This document shows positions 11,157 to 18,134 of a stretch of 64,000 nucleotides of DNA, piece after piece (position 1 is the stretch's first letter; every line of letters starts with the position of its first letter). A model generated the notes under the pieces. The model worked only from the letters and a program-made list of their open reading frames with translations, had not been told where the DNA came from and searched no databases. Position numbers and translations under genes: made by a program. Source of the DNA: an uncultured Chloroflexia bacterium (GTDB lineage: Bacteria > Chloroflexota > Limnocylindria > Limnocylindrales > CSP1-4); NCBI GenBank assembly GCA_963707215.1, contig CAVPPB010000003.1, forward strand, positions 1,408,001 through 1,472,000. Reading direction: 5' to 3'.

Positions 11157-12512
11157 CCTCGACGCCTCCCCCGGTCGACGACCCCGGGCGGCCGCTCACC
11201 GTCGTCGTCGCGCCCGGATTCGTTCAAGGGCTCGCTCACCTCGGTCGAGGTCGCCCGGGCCATCGCGACCGGCTGGTCCCGCGCCCGTCCCGGACGACCG
11301 GGTCGAGACGATCCCCCTGGCCGACGGCGGCGAGGGCACGCTGGCCGCCATCGAGGCGTCCGGCGGCTGGGAGTGGCGGGAGGTCGAGGCGACGGACCCG
11401 ATCGGCCGACCCGTCCGGGCCCGCTGGCTGCGGCGATCGGATGGCGGGGCCGCCGCGGTGGAGCTGGCCGAGGCGTCGGGGATCTCGCGGTTGACGACCG
11501 ACGAGCGCGACCCGGCCGGGGCCACGACCCTCGGCACCGGCGAGGTCCTGCGCGCGGTCCTCGACGCCGGGGTCCGCCACGTCGTGCTGGGGATCGGCGG
11601 CAGCGCTACGACCGACGGGGCGGCCGGGTTGCTCCGCGCGCTGGGGGCGACGGTCGAGCTGGGAGAGGCGGCCCGACCGGCCAGACCTGCCCGGGCTGCT
11701 GGCGACCCGGCGGCTGGCGACCCGGCTCTCGCCGCGGATCCCGGGTCGCCCACCGCGGATCCCGGGTCGCCCACCGCGGATCCCGGGACGCCCACCGCGG
11801 ATCCCGGGACGCCCACCGCGCCCCGCGTCGATCTCTCGGGCCTCGATCCCCGCCTCGCCGAGGTCGAGCTGCGGATCGCCTGCGACGTCACCAACCCGCT
11901 CCTCGGGCCGGACGGCGCGGCCGCCACCTACGGACCCGCAGAAGGGCGCGAGGCCCGATGACGTCGCGGCGCTCGACGCCCGGCTGGCGCGCTACGCCGA
12001 CGCGCTCGAGGCCGAGACCGACCGCAGCGAGCGGGACACTCCCGGCGCGGGCGCGGCGGGCGGTGTCGGGTTCGGGCTGCTCTGCCTGCGCGACCGCTTC
12101 GCCTCGCTCGAGCTGGTGCCCGGCGTCGACCTCGTCATGGAGGAGACCGGGCTGGCCGCTCGGCTGCGCGAGGCCGACCTCGTCATCACCGGCGAGGGCC
12201 GCGTCGACGCCCAGACGGCCTTCGGCAAGACGGCCCTCGGGGTCGCCCGACGGGCCCATGCGGCCGGCAGTCCCCTGCATCGTCGTCGGCGGCGGGGTGA
12301 CGCCTGACGGGATCCACGCGCTCGGCGACCTCGGGGCGGTCGTCGTCCCGGTCAGCGAGGGTCCGGGCTCGGTGGAGGCCGCCATGTCGGCAGGCCCCGG
12401 CCCGGTCGAGCGCTGCGGCGAACGGATCGCCCGACTCGTCTCGCTGGGCCGCGCGGCTGGGCTGAGCGTCTCGGTCACATGGCCCCGGACCCGAAGCGTG
12501 GTGGTTGACTAA
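11153..12512 (+). CDS. Glycerate kinase, class I GlxK/GarK family (several frameshifts)
   Basis: Across frames: VVAPDSFKGSL, PLADGGEGT, ELAEASG, IGGSATTDG, ACDVTNPLLGPDGAAATYGPQKG, GAGAAGG, VITGEGRVDAQTAFGK. Confidence 0.88.
11732..11820 (+). repeat. 21-bp tandem repeat x4 in glycerate kinase (ADPGSPT/ADPGTPT)
   Basis: Unit ccgcggatcccggg(t/a)cgccca at 11732, 11753, 11774 and 11795. Confidence 0.95.
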
Positions 12513-12534
12513 GTCACTGGACTAAGTCCAGTAT
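12505..12534 (+). promoter_or_regulatory. VapBC promoter/operator with two tandem palindromes
   Basis: TGACT-A-AGTCA (12506-12516) and ACTGGACT-A-AGTCCAGT (12516-12532). They overlap a TTGACT hexamer directly upstream of the antitoxin ATG. Confidence 0.75.
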
Positions 12535-12540
12535 CCCAGC

Positions 12541-12768
12541 ATGACGACCGTCAACGTGCACGACGCCAAGACCCACTTCTCCGAGTTGCTGGCGCGCGTT
12601 CGACGAGGCGAGCGGATCGTCATCGCTCGGGCCGGGAAGCCCATCGCGATGCTCACGCCGCTGGATGAACCACGCGAGCGCCGGCGACCCGGGATGGATC
12701 GCGGTCGACTGGCCATCGGCGCCGACTTCGACGAACCGCTGCCGGGGTTCGAGGAACTGGGAGGTTGA
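12541..12768 (+). CDS. Phd/YefM-family antitoxin
   Basis: VNVHDAKTHFSELLARVRRGERIVIARAGKPIAML. Confidence 0.93.
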   Translation: MTTVNVHDAKTHFSELLARVRRGERIVIARAGKPIAMLTPLDEPRERRRPGMDRGRLAIGADFDEPLPGFEELGG

Positions 12769-13151
12769 GGCTCCTCCTCGACACCCACTCCTACCTGTGG
12801 TGGACGATCGACGATCGCCGGCTGTCCGAACGGGCGCGGTCGGTCATCGAGGACGGCCGCAACGAGATCCTCGTGAGCGTCGCGTCCGCCTGGGAGCTCG
12901 CGATCAAGGCGACCCTTGGACGGATCACGACGCCAGAGCCGATCGATGACTTCCTCCCGGACAGCCTCGTTCGGAACGGGTTCCGGCCCCTCGCGATCGA
13001 GCTGCCTCACGCGCTCCGGGTCTCGCGTCTACCGATGATCCACGGTGATCCCTTCGATCGCCTGCTGATCGCCCAGGCATTGGTCGAGGACGTCCCGATC
13101 GTCACCTCCGACCCCGCGATCACCAGGTACGACGTGGAGACCATCTGGTGA
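12765..13151 (+). CDS. vapC: VapC PIN-domain toxin
   Basis: LLLDTH, SVASAWELAIK, HGDPFDRLLIAQA, IVTSD; TTG start overlapping the antitoxin stop. Confidence 0.93.
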   Translation: MRLLLDTHSYLWWTIDDRRLSERARSVIEDGRNEILVSVASAWELAIKATLGRITTPEPIDDFLPDSLVRNGFRPLAIELPHALRVSRLPMIHGDPFDRLLIAQALVEDVPIVTSDPAITRYDVETIW

Positions 13152-14020
13152 CCGAGAGCACGGAGCGTCGGACGCCTCGCTCGCGATCGACCCGAACGGG
13201 CAGGACCCGGTCTGCGCCTGCGAAGCGCCGAGCCCGCAAGCCGGCCGACCCCGGCAAGGCCTGGGCGAAGCGGCTCGAGCGGACCCGGCCCGGCCTGCTC
13301 GATGACACGCTGGCGGCGCTGGCGACCGTCCACGGCACGCCGACCTGGGAGCGCCGTCTCGACCCCACGAGCGAGCTGGTCCTGACGATCCTCTCGCAGA
13401 ACAGCGCCGACGTGAACGCCGAGAAGGCCTTCGAGTCGCTCCGGGCCGCCTACCCGTCCGACCGCCCGGCCGAGGAGCACAAGCCGGGCAAGGGCTGGGG
13501 CGGGGCCGGCCTGTCGACGGCGGCGCCGCCCGACTGGACGGCCGTCGAGAACGCCCCGCTGCCCGAGCTGGTCGAGGTCATCCGACCCGGCGGTCTCGCC
13601 CCCCAGAAGGCGCCCCGGATCCAGGCTGCGCTGCGGACCATCCGCGAGGCGCGGGGCGACCACTCGCTCGAGTTCCTGGCCGGGCTGCCGCCGCTGGAGG
13701 CCCGGGCCTGGCTCACCGCGATCGACGGGATCGGCAAGAAGACCGCCTCGGTGCTGCTGCTCTTCTGCTTCGGGACGCCGCTCATGCCGGTGGACCGCCA
13801 CGTCGAGCGGGTCTCGCACCGGATCGGCCTCATCCCGCCCAAGGCCGGAGCCGACGAGGCCCACGACCTCTACCTGGCGATGCTCCCCGGCGACCGGATG
13901 TACGAGACCCACGTCAACCTGATCCGCCATGGCCGGGTCACCTGCCACGCCCGCCGCCCGGCCTGCGACGCCTGCCCCATCCGGTCCCGCTGCCGCTTCT
14001 TCGACCGCAAGGCCCCGTAG
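13148..14020 (+). CDS. Endonuclease III-family HhH-GPD DNA glycosylase with 4Fe-4S cluster
   Basis: LVLTILSQN, GIGKKTA, PVDRHVERV, CHARRPACDACPIRSRC. Confidence 0.9.
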   Translation: MTESTERRTPRSRSTRTGRTRSAPAKRRARKPADPGKAWAKRLERTRPGLLDDTLAALATVHGTPTWERRLDPTSELVLTILSQNSADVNAEKAFESLRAAYPSDRPAEEHKPGKGWGGAGLSTAAPPDWTAVENAPLPELVEVIRPGGLAPQKAPRIQAALRTIREARGDHSLEFLAGLPPLEARAWLTAIDGIGKKTASVLLLFCFGTPLMPVDRHVERVSHRIGLIPPKAGADEAHDLYLAMLPGDRMYETHVNLIRHGRVTCHARRPACDACPIRSRCRFFDRKAP

Positions 14021-14061
14021 GGCCGGGGGGCGGTCGGATCGCGGACGGGAGGCGCCTCGGC

Positions 14062-14397
14062 CGCCGCCGCCGCGGCAGCCCGCGACTCGCCGCACCGGAT
14101 ATCGGCCGCTCCGATCGGATGGGCGGTCAGCGTGCATGGACGCCTGCCCACACGGTCGGCGCCGAGCGCACGTCACGCGTGCTGACCCCGCCCCGCATCG
14201 GCCTGACCGATACGGAGGCCCAGGATCGGCCGCCGCCGCGGCAGCCCGCGACTCGCCGCACCGGATATCGGCCGCTCCGATCGGATGGGCAGTCAGCGTG
14301 CATGGACGCCTGCCCACACGGTCGGCGCCGAGCGCACGTCACGCGTGCTGACCCCGCCCCGCATCGGCCTGACCGATACGGAGGCCCAGGATCGGCC
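14062..14397 (+). repeat. 166-bp near-perfect tandem duplication, each unit carrying one 117-bp palindromic-ended element
   Basis: Matching sequence at a 166-bp offset (14072 vs 14238; 14215 vs 14381). One substitution seen: gggcggtcag vs gggcagtcag. Confidence 0.95.
14098..14214 (+). repeat. 117-bp REPIN-like element, copy 1 (copy 2 at 14264-14380)
   Basis: GATATCGG-ccgct-CCGAT at the left end and ATCGG-cctga-CCGATACG at the right end. TCAG and CTGA lie 30 nt from each end. Confidence 0.8.
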
Positions 14398-14501
14398 ACT
14401 GCGGTGACCACACGGCATCGAGCGGAGTGCGCGAGCCTCGACGCGCCCGCCGCCAACGGCCCGTGGAGCGGCAGCGAAGCCCCGCACCGTAGAACGTCTC
14501 C

Positions 14502-15350
14502 GTGACGACGATCGAGCTGGACCCACGAGCAATCGGGCGGGCGATCAGGCACCTCCGGCGCACGGTCGGGTGGACCCAGGCCGAGCTCGCTCGACGGGCC
14601 GGCTCGTCCCAGGCTGCGATCTCGGACATCGAGCGCGGCAGGACCGGTCAGCTGGCATGTCGGACCGCCGCGAGGACGCTCGAGGCCCTGGGAGCGCGGG
14701 TGCTCCTGGCCGTGGATGCACCGTTCCTGGCCGACCGCGAGCACCAGCGGGACGCTGCCCATGCGAGGTGTGTCGCCTACACCGCCGGACGACTCGAACG
14801 GGCAGGCTGGGATGTCGCGACCGAGGTCGCCATCGGACGAGGCCGACCACGAGGCTGGATCGACGTCATGGGCCACCACCCGCAGACCGGCCTGGTCCTG
14901 GTGATCGAGATCAAGACGGAGCTGCACGACCTTGGTGCGGTCGACCGCCAGCTGCAGCGATACGAGGGGGTCGCCTGGGCCGCAGCCCGCGAGCGCGGGT
15001 GGCGGCCGAGAGGGGTGGCGGGTGCCCTGCTCGCGCTGGCCACGGATGCGGTCGACGAACGCGCCCGCGCGAACCGCGAGCTCTTGCGGCGATCGTTCCC
15101 GGGTCGCGCAGGCGAACTCGATCGCGTCATTCGTTCGGGCGGGCTCCCTCGCGATGGGCGACGGTTCATGGCCCTGATCGACCCGCTGTCGAGACGCTCG
15201 GTCTGGCTCCGACCGCTTCGAGTCGATGGCCGCCGAGCCGCCGCGCGGTACGCCGACTACGCATCGTTCATCCGGGCGCGCGCCGACCGAAGCCGCGCTG
15301 CGCGCCACGGCCGGCCGCCGGGCGGCACCGCGGGACGAGCGAGGGACTGA
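14502..15350 (+). CDS. XRE-family HTH fused to PD-(D/E)XK nuclease domain
   Basis: HTH: IRHLRRTVGWTQAELARRAGSSQAAISDIERG. Nuclease: WDVATEV...GWIDVMG...LVIEIKTEL...DRQLQRY, i.e. E...D...ExK plus QxxxY. Confidence 0.85.
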   Translation: MTTIELDPRAIGRAIRHLRRTVGWTQAELARRAGSSQAAISDIERGRTGQLACRTAARTLEALGARVLLAVDAPFLADREHQRDAAHARCVAYTAGRLERAGWDVATEVAIGRGRPRGWIDVMGHHPQTGLVLVIEIKTELHDLGAVDRQLQRYEGVAWAAARERGWRPRGVAGALLALATDAVDERARANRELLRRSFPGRAGELDRVIRSGGLPRDGRRFMALIDPLSRRSVWLRPLRVDGRRAAARYADYASFIRARADRSRAARHGRPPGGTAGRARD

Positions 15351-15442
15351 TCGCGAGCCAGCGGGACCGCCGGATCCCTGGCCTCCTCGACCGACCGCCC
15401 TGATACCGGCCGCTGCTCGCCCGCCGCGCCGCCCCGGCCGCT

Positions 15443-15499
15443 GCTCGCCCGACCGGTCGCCGCTCGCCCGACCGGTCGCCGCTCGCCCGACCGATCGCC
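15443..15499 (+). repeat. 19-bp tandem repeat x3
   Basis: gctcgcccgaccg(g/a)tcgcc at 15443, 15462 and 15481, directly abutting the 117-bp element. Confidence 0.9.
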
Positions 15500-15502
15500 G
15501 CC

Positions 15503-15619
15503 CGTATCGGCAAGGCCGATGCCCCCGAGGCTCAGCGATCGTGAACGCGGCTTGAACGAGGCCGACCTGGCGCCCGAAGGAGCACACTGATCTCGCTTGG
15601 CATCGGGCGCACCGATATC
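15503..15619 (-). repeat. 117-bp REPIN-like element, copy 3 (inverted, diverged)
   Basis: The reverse complement aligns gap-free with 14098-14214 (68/117 identical by manual count), with matches concentrated in the motifs. Confidence 0.8.
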
Positions 15620-15786
15620 GCGCGCCTCGGCGGCCCCGCCCACGCACCGGACCATCGCGGCCTGCCACCCGCACCCACCGCGCCACCCGCACCGCCCCCC
15701 TACCGCGCCTCGGCGTCCGGCCCCGCGACCCGCCCCCGCACCCGGCCGCACCCGGCCGGGCCCGCGCCCGTCCCTATACTCGGGCC

Positions 15787-16674
15787 ATGCTGACCGGCGG
15801 CCCCACCGGCACCCGCGGCCCCGGCGAGAGGCCCACCCCGCCCCGCATCCTGCTCGTCGACGACGACCCCAACCTCCTCGTCCTGCTCGCCGAGCAGCTC
15901 CGCTCCGACGGCTACGAGGTCCAGACGGCCCGCGACGGCGAGGAGGCGCTTCGCCGGCTGCGCGGTGGCTGGCCCGACCTGCTCATCGTCGACATGATGA
16001 TGCCCCGCCTCGACGGCCTCTCCCTGGCCCGCGAGATCAAGGCCCAGGCCGACCTGCCGATCATCGTCCTCTCGGCCATCGACGCCGGCGACAGCAAGGC
16101 CGACCTGCTCGAGGAGTTCGCCGAGGACTACATCACCAAGCCGTACCACTACCCGGAGCTCCGGGCGCGGGTGAACCGGGTCCTGCGGCGGCTGGGCGAC
16201 AAGGTCCCTCGGGCCAGCCTCGTCCTGGGCCCGGACCTGACCCTCGAGCTCCACCGCAAGGTCGCCATCGTCCGGGGCGAGCCCGTCCAGCTGACGCCCA
16301 CCGAGTCGCGGCTGCTCTACGCCCTGGCGGCCAACCTCGGCCAGACCGTGCCCACCGACACGCTCCTCGCCCGCGGTTGGTCGGAGGCCGAGGACGCCGA
16401 GCCGTCGTACGTCTGGGTGACGATGCGTCGGCTTCGCCGCAAGGTCGAGGTCGACCCGGATCGCCCGGTCCACCTGCTGACGGTGCGGGGGATCGGCTAC
16501 CGGCTGGTCCGGGTCGAGGACGACCGAGCCGAGGACGACCGAGCCGCCGAGCCCGAGCCCGAGCGCCAGGCCGAGTCCGAGCCCGAGCGCCAGGCCGAAC
16601 CTGAGCGCCCACCCGAGGCCCAACGCCCGACCGCCACGCCGACCACGCGCCCTACCACCGAGCCGCCCGCGTGA
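15787..16674 (+). CDS. OmpR-family response regulator with low-complexity C-terminal tail
   Basis: ILLVDDD, IVDMMMP, DYITKP, LTPTE, RLRRKVE, TVRGIGY; TATACT 6 nt upstream of the ATG. Confidence 0.92.
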   Translation: MLTGGPTGTRGPGERPTPPRILLVDDDPNLLVLLAEQLRSDGYEVQTARDGEEALRRLRGGWPDLLIVDMMMPRLDGLSLAREIKAQADLPIIVLSAIDAGDSKADLLEEFAEDYITKPYHYPELRARVNRVLRRLGDKVPRASLVLGPDLTLELHRKVAIVRGEPVQLTPTESRLLYALAANLGQTVPTDTLLARGWSEAEDAEPSYVWVTMRRLRRKVEVDPDRPVHLLTVRGIGYRLVRVEDDRAEDDRAAEPEPERQAESEPERQAEPERPPEAQRPTATPTTRPTTEPPA

Positions 16675-18134
16675 CCGAGCCGCCCATCCCCGGCGTCACC
16701 GAGCCGTCGCGGCCGACCGCCCCCGACCGACCGCCCACCGACCGCCAGCCCCTCGGGCGCCTCTCGTTCCGGGCCCGCCTCACCGTGGCCCTCGTGGCCG
16801 CCGGCGTCCTGCCCGTCGCCGGCTTCGGCCTGCTCGTCCTCCTCGCCCAGCCGCCGACCGAGGACCAGACCGTGGCCCGGCTGCTGATCTTCGCCATCGT
16901 GGTCGCGGTCGTGCTCGCGCTGCTCCTGGCGCTCCTGCTGGCCTCCGACCTGACCGCGCCCCTCCGGGCCATCGCCGGCGCCGTCGAGCGCTCGTCGGCC
17001 GGTGAGTCGGGGCCACCACTGCAGGTCACCGGCGACGACGAGGTCGCCCGCCTGGCCTCGCTCCAGAACCGCCTCGTGGAGGACCTCGACCGGCGCAACC
17101 GCGAGGTCCGCGGCGTCCTCGCCGCCCTCGCCACCCTCACCCCCGAGCAGGGTCCCCAGCGGATCGCCGACCGCGCCGGTGACGCCGCCCGATCCGCCTT
17201 CGAGCTCATCGACGCGACCGTCCTGCTCGTCGATCCCGTCGAGATCCCCGAGGAGGAAGTCATCCCCGGCGTCTCGCGCCCGGTCCGAGCCGTCCTGCGG
17301 GTCGGCGAGGAACCGCTCGGCATCCTCGTCGGCCGGCTCCAGGCGACCCGCCGGTGGGAGGCCGCCGACCAGGACCTCTTCGACCTCTACGCGACCGAGG
17401 TCGCCGTGGCGATCCGCAACGCCGAGCTGTTCGCCCGGGTCGAGAGCCAGAACGCCCGCCTCGTCGCCCTCGACGAGGCCAAGGACGACTTCCTCCGCGG
17501 CATCGGCCACAACCTCCAGACGCCGCTGACCAGGATCCGCGCCTACGCCGGGCAGCTGGCCGACGAGCGACCCGACCGCCGGCTCGAGGTCATCGGCGAG
17601 CAGGCCGAGCGCCTCTCCCGGATGGTCCGCCAGCTGCTGACCGTCTCGCGCCTGGAGTCGGGCGGGCTGCGGCCGCGGCTCGAGGTGCTCACCCTGGGGG
17701 CTCGAGTGCGGCGGGCCTGGGAGGCGCTCGGGATGGGCGACGTCCAGTTCGACCTCCACGACCGGAGCGAAGGCTGGCTGGCGATCGGCGACCCCGACCA
17801 CGTCGACCAGGTCCTCTGGGCGCTCCTCGACAACGCCGTGAAGTACGGCGGCGGGCCGATCGAGGCGACCGTCGATGCCGAGCCGGACGATGGGTGGCTG
17901 CGCCTGACCATCCGGGACGGCGGCTCCGGCGTGCCACCCGAGGCGCGCGAGGGCCTCTTCCAGCGCTACGACCGCGGCGGGCGGACCGGGACCGACGGCA
18001 GCGGGCTGGGCCTCTACGTCTCCCGAGAGCTCTGCCGGGCGATGCGCGGCGACCTGGTCCTGGAGGAAGCTCGACCGGGGCTGGGGGCGGCCTTCAGCGT
18101 GCTGCTCCCCGCAGAGCCGGCCGAGGAGAGCTGA
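16671..18134 (+). CDS. Sensor histidine kinase (2 TM, HAMP, GAF-like, HisKA, HATPase)
   Basis: GHNLQTPLT H-box, LLDNAVKY, RDGGSG, GSGLGL. Confidence 0.9.
   Translation: MTEPPIPGVTEPSRPTAPDRPPTDRQPLGRLSFRARLTVALVAAGVLPVAGFGLLVLLAQPPTEDQTVARLLIFAIVVAVVLALLLALLLASDLTAPLRAIAGAVERSSAGESGPPLQVTGDDEVARLASLQNRLVEDLDRRNREVRGVLAALATLTPEQGPQRIADRAGDAARSAFELIDATVLLVDPVEIPEEEVIPGVSRPVRAVLRVGEEPLGILVGRLQATRRWEAADQDLFDLYATEVAVAIRNAELFARVESQNARLVALDEAKDDFLRGIGHNLQTPLTRIRAYAGQLADERPDRRLEVIGEQAERLSRMVRQLLTVSRLESGGLRPRLEVLTLGARVRRAWEALGMGDVQFDLHDRSEGWLAIGDPDHVDQVLWALLDNAVKYGGGPIEATVDAEPDDGWLRLTIRDGGSGVPPEAREGLFQRYDRGGRTGTDGSGLGLYVSRELCRAMRGDLVLEEARPGLGAAFSVLLPAEPAEES

Follow-up and report, generated by a model that had tools for sequence, protein, structure and literature searches.

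Bacterial single-copy genes that live alongside a repeat population of their own have so far had REPIN/RAYT as their textbook example, in which a single enzyme family (HUH/Tyr) is involved. There, according to PMC3337134, short dispersed non-coding repeats stand on either side of the gene; every gene goes with one particular repeat family, and genomes with more than one gene have more than one family; and the families are lineage-specific, with conserved repeat ends and an unconserved spacer. These traits recur in the system considered here, around a different enzyme. The window analysed is the whole of a 64,000-nucleotide (nt) stretch (C3:1408001-1472000) of genome G000, an uncultured Chloroflexia bacterium (GenBank GCA_963707215.1; 3.26 Mb, 72% G+C, five contigs, 84.8% complete). 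It contains a gene (14502-15350, + strand; coordinates without a contig are window positions) for a 282-residue protein with an XRE-type helix-turn-helix (HTH) domain and a PD-(D/E)XK nuclease domain, lying among copies of a 117-bp element, two upstream and one downstream; five more copies are solo. That gene and repeat are a cognate pair seems to us very probable. On balance, comparison of related genomes also argues for a nuclease-repeat system in which HTH dimers would bind duplex palindromes and position the PD-(D/E)XK nuclease on the element.

The three copies claimed in a sequence-only reading of this DNA are all where it placed them: up1 (14098-14214), up2 (14264-14380), and "down" (15503-15619). 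Each is bounded by two ATCGG-N5-CCGAT palindromes, at 14101-14115 and 14197-14211 in up1 (genome positions C3:1422101 and 1422197), 14267-14281 and 14363-14377 in up2, and 15506-15520 and 15602-15616 in "down"; within them lie TCAG (14127-14130 in up1, 15532-15535 in "down") and CTGA (14182-14185 and 15587-15590). Up1 and up2 are identical at 116/117 positions, without gaps, and belong to a 166-bp tandem duplication (14048-14379) whose two units (14048-14213 and 14214-14379, 95% identical in a direct-repeat search) each consist of one element and a leader of 49-50 nt; the repeat finder TRF places it at 14063-14397 (period 166, 2.0 copies, 99% matches). "Down" aligns best to up1 as its reverse complement, with 68/117 identities and no gaps, exactly the count given in that reading. 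In direct orientation the two still match at 59/117, because the element is itself dyad-symmetric; "inverted" is therefore weakly defined here.

Further copies, which the sequence-only reading had suggested looking for, do exist: G000 has eight copies of the ATCGG element, three at the gene and five solo (C1:142825, C1:533192, C1:792657, C2:268185, and C3:1236613). A BLAST-type search of the genome with up1 returns just up1 and up2, and the solo copies came from motif searches. The exact double-palindrome pattern has five matches (none for the reversed control), and two degenerate copies were added by a half-site scan and an ungapped scan; ATCGG-N5-CCGAT as such occurs 22 times in G000, 11 of these within six elements. 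Across the copies the invariant positions are TATCGG-N5-CCGAT at one end, TCAG at 30-33, CTGA at 85-88, and ATCGG-N5-CCGATA at the other end, as the sequence-only reading had proposed for the end motifs and inner spacing, with the 15-bp palindromes 96 bp apart, start to start. Element length is kept without indels between copies that are only 58% identical, and conservation is confined to the motif blocks. Where junctions were inspected, the copies occupy spacers between co-directional genes; no gene overlaps any copy in the filtered open reading frame (ORF) calls, which are crude (they depend on a filter for G+C at third codon positions, GC3). A palindrome scan without gaps was useless as a detector: the elements are only moderately palindromic (26-35/58) and are not outliers among the genome's 117-mers.

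In a genome of 72% G+C, all of this except the local duplication might be a GC-rich, low-complexity artefact, and the local-alignment score of the up/down pair does lie within its null range. Ungapped comparison points the other way. Random G000 117-mers (200,000) match up1 at 34.8±5.0 positions, with a maximum of 66, compared with the 68 of "down", and in an exhaustive scan of 6,514,776 windows all those with at least 63 matches are up1, up2, or other element copies (C1:533192, 70; "down" and C2:268185, 68 each; C3:1236613 and C1:792657, 65 each). Together with the reversed-pattern control and the recurrence of the same architecture beside orthologues, described next, this refutes chance as an explanation, and we give it practically no weight. 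Of the outcomes that the sequence-only reading had named as fatal to its proposal, the three open to computation (no more copies, no such elements beside homologous genes, an alignment at chance level) all failed to appear.

Homologues of the protein occur in 35 of the 36 other genomes of the same family searched (E ≤1e-5) and in none of 24 genomes of the sister family (~1-Mb genomes). An alignment splits them into two groups: clade A, the orthologues of the window protein (39-51% identical, with a C-terminal IDP..RR..W...DGRR...Y.DYADF extension), and clade B, more distant paralogues (30-36% identical). The sequence-only reading had asked whether such homologues have flanking elements of their own, and many in clade A do. 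A locus was counted as positive if its flanks gave a local-alignment score of at least 45, or if a pair of same-arm 5-N5-5 palindromes (5-nt arms around a 5-nt spacer) lay within 500 nt of the gene. By this unified test 21 of 37 testable clade A loci (39 in all) are positive, 10 by alignment and 13 by palindromes, including 2 by both; the corresponding figures are 1 of 14 for clade B and 11 of 300 for 800-bp mock segments taken from G000. Since the palindrome criterion was derived from the window locus itself, these figures show an enrichment, not a rate. The flanking repeats at positive clade A loci are ~100-120 bp long, or consist of paired 5-N5-5 palindromes with genome-specific arms; among the first ten orthologous loci, five had strong similarity between upstream and downstream flanks (scores 52-138, vs. 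nulls of ~23±2).

In each of the four genomes searched for it, the flanking repeat is a dispersed family: 6 copies in G014, 17 matches in G031 (E ≤1.5e-6), 12 in G019 (E ≤1.2e-3; 11 aligned), and 31 in G016 (E ≤1, mostly with the ends conserved). Like that of G000, whose exact double-palindrome pattern is restricted to this one of 61 genomes of the family, the G014 repeat is found in G014 alone among 101 genomes, and not in the other genomes of its genus (g14) that were searched. Two G014 elements (C32:26904-27013 and C32:28818-28928; loci L072 and L075), 1.8 kb apart and inverted relative to each other, enclose no HTH-nuclease homologue.

Many of these loci repeat the window architecture of two identical 5-N5-5 palindromes, with other arms. 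Beside the ATCGG of the G000 clade A gene, the arms are ATGAG (G025 and G014), GCCAC (G030, G098, and G186), GTGCG (G097 and G122), GCTAC (G129, in both flanks), ATGCG (G141), ATCCG (G094), ATCAC (G156), and TTCGG (the second clade A gene of G031). The distances from palindrome to palindrome fall into clusters of 93-97 and 105-106 bp, plus a single value of 86; they would correspond to about 8, 9, and 10 helical turns, and may reflect helical phasing.

Where a genome has several such genes, the repeat families also multiply. The sequence-only reading had suggested examining paralogues for co-varying elements, and G000 itself provides a case: a second family, pairs of ACCAG-N5-CTGGT palindromes 94 bp apart, has six copies (C1:545634, C1:763283, C1:811929, C2:451254, C2:456812, and C3:1194851), one of them abutting a clade B paralogue (C2:451366-452034), which is the sole clade B positive. 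The ACCAG pattern is found six times in G000, three times in the same-genus genome G001, and not at all in 199 other genomes, with no matches for the controls. The ACCAG elements additionally have outer palindromes ~40 nt away, with outer inverted repeats of the GCTATCACGG type. In G031, elements of the TTCGG type flank the second clade A gene, a single one to its one side and a tandem run of at least three to its other, and the two G031 families are unrelated (cross-score 29, equal to background). The third G000 paralogue (C3:582181-582864, minus strand) has no 117-bp element; by eye, a short motif (TGCATCG..GCCAGT..TCGGGG) can be seen in both of its flanks (C3:581950-581980 and C3:582915-582945).

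Between the terminal palindromes, five families have in common an 8-mer, CGAGCGTG, at a fixed offset from the palindrome start, which is 31 nt for ATCGG and G014 and 41 nt for ACCAG. The count was made on exact matches, a scan allowing one mismatch having been too noisy in GC-rich DNA: they are present in 5/6 copies in G014, 7/11 in G019, 14/17 in G031, 3/6 for ACCAG, and 2/8 for ATCGG, against a genome background of 0.0154 per 100 nt. The three window copies have degenerate versions only, their inner pair being TCAG...CTGA. Where the core is paired it forms direct repeats in G014 and G031, and inverted repeats in G019. From this division of the element we infer an address, the variable terminal palindromes, and a common functional site, the conserved core. 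The proteins offer some hint of the same code: the two that go with ATGAG arms are just 39% identical overall, and both have SQxx(V/M)SL in the recognition helix, while the GCCAC trio has S(R/S)xMV(A/G)(R/K) in common there.

The protein begins with the XRE-type HTH domain (residues ~8-70), followed by a linker, the nuclease domain (~85-230), and the C-terminal extension specific to clade A. Pfam recognizes the first of these as HTH_31 (E 5.6e-9, 36.6 bits vs. a cut-off of 27) and HTH_3 (E 2e-8, 34.6 bits vs. 23), the five-helix domain of the XRE or Cro/C1 type; PDB profile matches are C.BclI, HipB, and SinR; and the best structural matches of the N-terminal domain are the restriction-modification controller proteins (C-proteins) C.AhdI (Z 11.8) and C.BclI (Z 11.6), C-proteins and HipB together spanning Z 10-12. 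Beyond the HTH, no family was found for the protein in Pfam, NCBIfam, PADLOC, or the PDB profile search, and the nearest ESM Atlas clusters to residues 80-282 are unnamed Chloroflexota proteins without a Pfam family.

The nuclease assignment comes from residues and fold. In an alignment of 25 homologues five residues do not vary (H87, E108, G118, D121, and K138), and conservation of E136 is 90% or higher, in agreement with the intact nuclease site claimed, along with the HTH, by the sequence-only reading. An AF2 model built from this alignment (mean pLDDT 88.8) has a helix at 85-100, strands at 104-111, 118-126, and 131-138, a helix at 144-164, and a strand at 171-179, that is, the alpha-beta-beta-beta-alpha-beta core of the PD-(D/E)XK superfamily, with D121 on strand 2 and E136-x-K138 on strand 3. 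Structural alignment places it near NucS (2vld; Z 8.8, rmsd 3.1 over 105 residues) and AF1548 (1y88; Z 8.7, rmsd 3.5 over 110 residues), and Foldseek matches NucS/EndoMS (2vld, 5gke) and the R2 restriction-like endonuclease. With moderate Z values (~8-9, in the range of a common arrangement), assignment of the fold depends in part on the motif. A RAYT identity was rejected: with HTH as its sole Pfam match the protein has no HUH motif or catalytic Tyr domain, and its fold is PD-(D/E)XK.

The protein probably acts as a dimer joined through its HTH domain, to judge from modelling. The homodimer model reaches an ipSAE of 0.67, vs. 0.00 for the best of three controls, and so passes its mark. Among proteins solved as pairs of one chain 20 of 30 pass this mark too, and among those solved as single chains 1 of 23. 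Between runs at least 95% of contacts agree; partner pLDDT is at least 81, and the interface falls within residues 1-80. Because this interface resembles the solved HipB and C-protein dimers, the pass may reflect likeness to them.

How might such a protein recognize the element? For REPINs (inverted REP doublets) the answer is a hairpin whose spacer is kept complementary, and the sequence-only reading had suggested terminal hairpins here too. The palindromes it pointed to, and the inverted conserved ends, are real; the predicted folding is unremarkable. Minimum free energies of whole copies compared with dinucleotide shuffles give z of -0.6 to -2.8, and those of the interiors -0.5 to +1.5. RNAalifold on the 17 G031 copies found only eight pairs, none changed on both sides, and complementarity of a copy's own arms (9.24) is not above that between copies (10.50; permutation p ~0.97), though neither alignment was structure-aware, so that a weak signal could be missed. 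On these three grounds the single-strand, REPIN-like model was dropped. The absence of hairpin covariation, the comparison which that reading had proposed for telling hairpins from double-stranded binding sites, makes recognition of duplex palindromes probable. Its view that fixed spacing with free spacers marks protein-recognition sites fits this result, the kept arms with varying N5, and the predicted HTH dimer. The evidence as a whole favours dimeric HTH binding to double-stranded terminal palindromes.

The same results bear on another explanation, in which the elements would be conserved for the structure they form as RNA or single-stranded DNA, either as small RNAs or, like classical REP sequences, as long terminator or stabilizer hairpins. 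A long imperfect hairpin can be drawn for every copy (RNA energies -47 to -67 kcal/mol), copies lie downstream of gene 3′ ends, and kept arms with a free N5 are also what one would see in a 5-bp stem whose 5-nt loop is free. However, none of the three folding analyses finds the expected signal, the core CGAGCGTG is a direct repeat in G014 and G031 and cannot pair with itself, and Rfam has no match at E ≤1 on either strand of window positions 12000-18000. A structured transcript is in our view very improbable.

Comparison with G001, whose flanking genes are 87-90% identical to those of G000, gives some idea of the history of the locus. A block of ~1.74 kb, made up of the repeats, the gene, and spacers (14035-15765 by blastn, edges approximate), is absent from G001, which has no clade A gene. 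Its left edge is the stop codon of an endonuclease III-like gene (nth) that is 89% identical at the nucleotide level between the two genomes up to 14029. On the right, G001 aligns again from 15771, at the response regulator side; the junction (G001 L139, 2355/2371) joins window positions 14029 and 15771, leaving 43 nt between nth and the response regulator gene, vs. ~1.74 kb in the window. The empty site that the sequence-only reading had thought worth looking for is therefore present in this relative. At both of the two solo ATCGG sites that can be aligned (2/2), G001 also lacks the element, and 210-250 nt of spacer are missing too; around a further solo site (C1:792657) the surrounding 1.5 kb are highly diverged. 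In contrast, G001 keeps its clade B gene, and its three ACCAG elements are orthologous in position to three of those in G000. Elements are thus present with their gene and absent without it. In the orthologous ACCAG pairs arms and core are kept and N5 and spacers diverge, indicating that the motifs are under constraint where elements persist; element plus 40 nt on each side is 64-74% identical, vs. 83-90% in the longest flanking alignments.

The main rival explanation would read these positions as fixed operators. By this account the protein is chiefly a transcription factor, an autoregulator with a small regulon, whose nuclease domain has an unrelated or vestigial role, and each element is a composite operator of two to four palindromic sites that stays in place, neither copied nor moved. 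In its favour are an HTH closest in structure to operator-binding C-proteins and HipB, palindromic 5-N5-5 sites to go with a predicted HTH dimer, elements in spacers upstream of co-directional genes, outer palindromes 40 nt from the ACCAG elements that resemble operator arrays, and the three ACCAG elements conserved in position and constrained in their arms between G000 and G001, which it explains directly. What it does not explain is the conservation of the catalytic residues across the 25 homologues, the species-specific turnover of the sites (the G014 and ATCGG types are absent from congeners), and the joint absence of gene and sites from G001. Whole-element tandem duplications beside the gene, as in the 166-bp units here and at the second G031 gene, also speak against it, as does the patchiness of the gene within genera (2/8 genomes in g14, 2/9 in g16), unusual for a housekeeping regulator. 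We regard a pure regulon as unlikely.

As a further possibility, the elements could be passengers: MITEs (miniature inverted-repeat transposable elements) or REP-like repeats moved by some other transposase, with the gene sitting in a repeat-rich hotspot or carried as cargo. Like MITEs, they are short (~117 bp), non-coding, and intergenic, with ends resembling terminal inverted repeats and presence or absence differing between related genomes, and the flanks of several orthologues are rich in other repeats, including the 19-bp tandem array described below. They differ from MITEs in that no target-site duplication was seen at their (poorly defined) edges, in that whole elements rather than single ends flank the gene, and in that conservation is confined to motif blocks at a length kept without indels. 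No DDE- or HUH-type parent was found either, PF01797 (Y1/IS200-type) being the sole transposase family searched; it is missing from G000, at 84.8% completeness, and a control search detected it in 6 of 14 reference genomes. Mobilization by an unrelated transposase would also not predict an association that recurs in many genera with different repeats and specifically in clade A, two genes in one genome each with its own family, or the finding that inverted half-sites 0.7-3 kb apart occur in G000 at this gene's locus only. Such a passenger status appears distinctly improbable.

Other described systems show partial likenesses. Restriction-modification C-proteins and HTH-bearing type II endonucleases resemble this protein in its N-terminal domain, in the use of dimeric HTHs on palindromic boxes (dimer and binding being predicted here), and in the PD-(D/E)XK core. 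They differ in genomic setting and targets: the neighbours are nth and a response regulator gene, with no adjacent methyltransferase (none was sought elsewhere in the genome); PADLOC found no match beyond the HTH; and the candidate sites, few in number, are long composite elements rather than a short frequent sequence. A restriction-modification unit was rejected on the lack of an adjacent cognate methyltransferase. The likeness to NucS/EndoMS and AF1548 is one of fold, over residues ~86-240, with no membership at the sequence level and a different N-terminal domain. Homing endonuclease genes likewise place a nuclease gene among copies of its presumed recognition DNA and are patchy within genera, but the gene here is not inside an intron, intein, or host gene, has complete elements on both sides rather than a split target, and gives no evidence of homing. 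From REPIN/RAYT itself the system departs in its enzyme, which is not an HUH/Tyr Y1 transposase; in having no detectable hairpin-maintaining covariation; in the fixed element length and palindrome spacing (~93-97 or 105-106 bp); and in copy number, which ranges from 6 to ~30 (G000 8 and 6 for ATCGG and ACCAG; G014 6; G019 ~12; G031 ~17; G016 up to ~30 partial matches) instead of the tens to hundreds of REPINs, with the reservation that these assemblies are incomplete and repeats may be under-assembled.

The mechanism we would propose runs as follows. HTH dimers would recognize both terminal palindromes in duplex DNA, with the arms serving as a specificity code that changes together with the protein. 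This would bring the nuclease domains to the conserved inner core or to the ends of the element. Cutting would then be aimed by an evolvable XRE-HTH dimer, with the arms as a simple, swappable address code. A gene between copies of its own element, and further copies in short intergenic spacers, would be the expected arrangement, and elements would persist, duplicate, and probably spread only where the cognate gene is present. Such a system would follow REPIN/RAYT in its genomic logic but use an unrelated enzyme, and would recognize double strands instead of hairpins. That the protein copies or moves the elements we hold to be possible, with more doubt than conviction. As tentatively, the pair may be an undescribed gene-repeat symbiosis, in which the nuclease cuts within its cognate ~117-bp elements and break-induced repair copies, inverts, or spreads both them and the gene. 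Binding, cleavage, copying, mobilization, and inversion of elements by the protein are all activities that we infer from genome comparison.

Several observations weigh against this interpretation. All of its support is comparative. By either criterion 16 of the 37 testable clade A loci have no flanking element, and the palindrome criterion was devised after the window locus had been seen. The window's own up/down pair fails the alignment criterion (32, vs. a null of 28.6±3.6), although a test that misses this diverged pair must be insensitive. The low copy numbers are accompanied by signs of age, copies being 58% identical within G000 and 72-86% in G031. Neither a target-site duplication nor a sharp element boundary came to light at the copies examined; no direct repeats were seen at element edges, which are themselves not sharply defined, and the extra DNA at "filled" sites, at 210-250 nt, is longer than the 117-bp element. 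The three ACCAG copies conserved in position between species would also fit static binding sites. The link between recognition helix and arm, drawn from 14 proteins and judged by eye, is suggestive only. Finally, the HTH-nuclease gene adjoins nth in four genera (G000, G019 at L037, G025 at L038, and G031 at L039), which could reflect vertical descent with loss in G001, not insertion. The gene is on the nth strand in G000 only and on the opposite strand in the other three, a difference that fits either inversion between flanking elements or independent arrival.

If the proposal is right, the REPIN/RAYT arrangement has arisen independently around an unrelated nuclease that recognizes DNA in another way, giving a double-strand, HTH-addressed counterpart of a single-strand, HUH-driven system; such partnerships would then look like a general evolutionary outcome, not a quirk of IS200-like transposases. 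The 5-N5-5 arms, changing with the recognition helix, would form a natural series of orthogonal protein-DNA address pairs. A full-text literature search (titles and abstract starts, with subscription journals and supplements outside its reach) found no PD-(D/E)XK or HTH-nuclease paired with a repeat family; its matches were HUH-type REPIN/RAYT papers and unrelated MITE work only.

The two-part system has so far been found in one uncultured bacterial family only. Within it, clade A proteins (E ≤1e-35) occur in 50 of 201 genomes and 20 of 49 genera, at 1-4 copies per genome. The protein family itself is large: when 1.84 billion representatives were searched with the full-length profile, at least 1,155 clusters (50% identity) matched at E ≤1e-30, and the pairing with repeats gives a function-linked handle on this unannotated group. 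Named homologues among the matches listed are labelled "XRE-family regulator," "XRE-family transcriptional regulator," "helix-turn-helix," or "hypothetical protein"; one such label and the atlas taxa point to Chloroflexota. Plasmid and phage collections held no homologue at E ≤1e-5.

In the window the block runs, in order, up1, up2, the gene, a 19-bp tandem repeat, "down," and a C-rich tract to ~15770. The gene has a GC3 of 0.81, vs. 0.95 in both neighbours, and all three HTH-nuclease paralogues in G000 fell below the GC3 > 0.85 gene filter. The 19-bp repeat (15434-15501; 3.6 copies by TRF and direct-repeat search) abuts "down," and a looser array begins at 15405. After "down" come 150 nt (15620-15770) of C-rich sequence with 9-12-nt periodicities. 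Tandem arrays adjoin orthologues as well: 29 nt × 2 at L037, 34 nt × 3 at L043, and 15 nt × 4 at L040.

To the left, the nth gene (13148-14020, + strand) matches Pfam HhH-GPD (E 1e-10) and, more weakly, EndIII_4Fe-2S (E 0.00084; 20.0 bits, just below the 20.5-bit cut-off). Upstream of it are two small overlapping ORFs (12541-12768 and 12765-13151) that resemble an antitoxin/PIN-toxin pair of the VapBC type. To the right lie an OmpR-type response regulator gene (15787-16674, + strand; Response_reg E 4.9e-27, Trans_reg_C E 7.8e-20) and then a histidine kinase-like ORF (16671-18134). Elsewhere in G000, C1:252600-254870, picked up by the genome scan through its recurring palindrome pairs, contains a tandem array with a period of ~483 nt and at least five units, probably a repeat-containing coding region.

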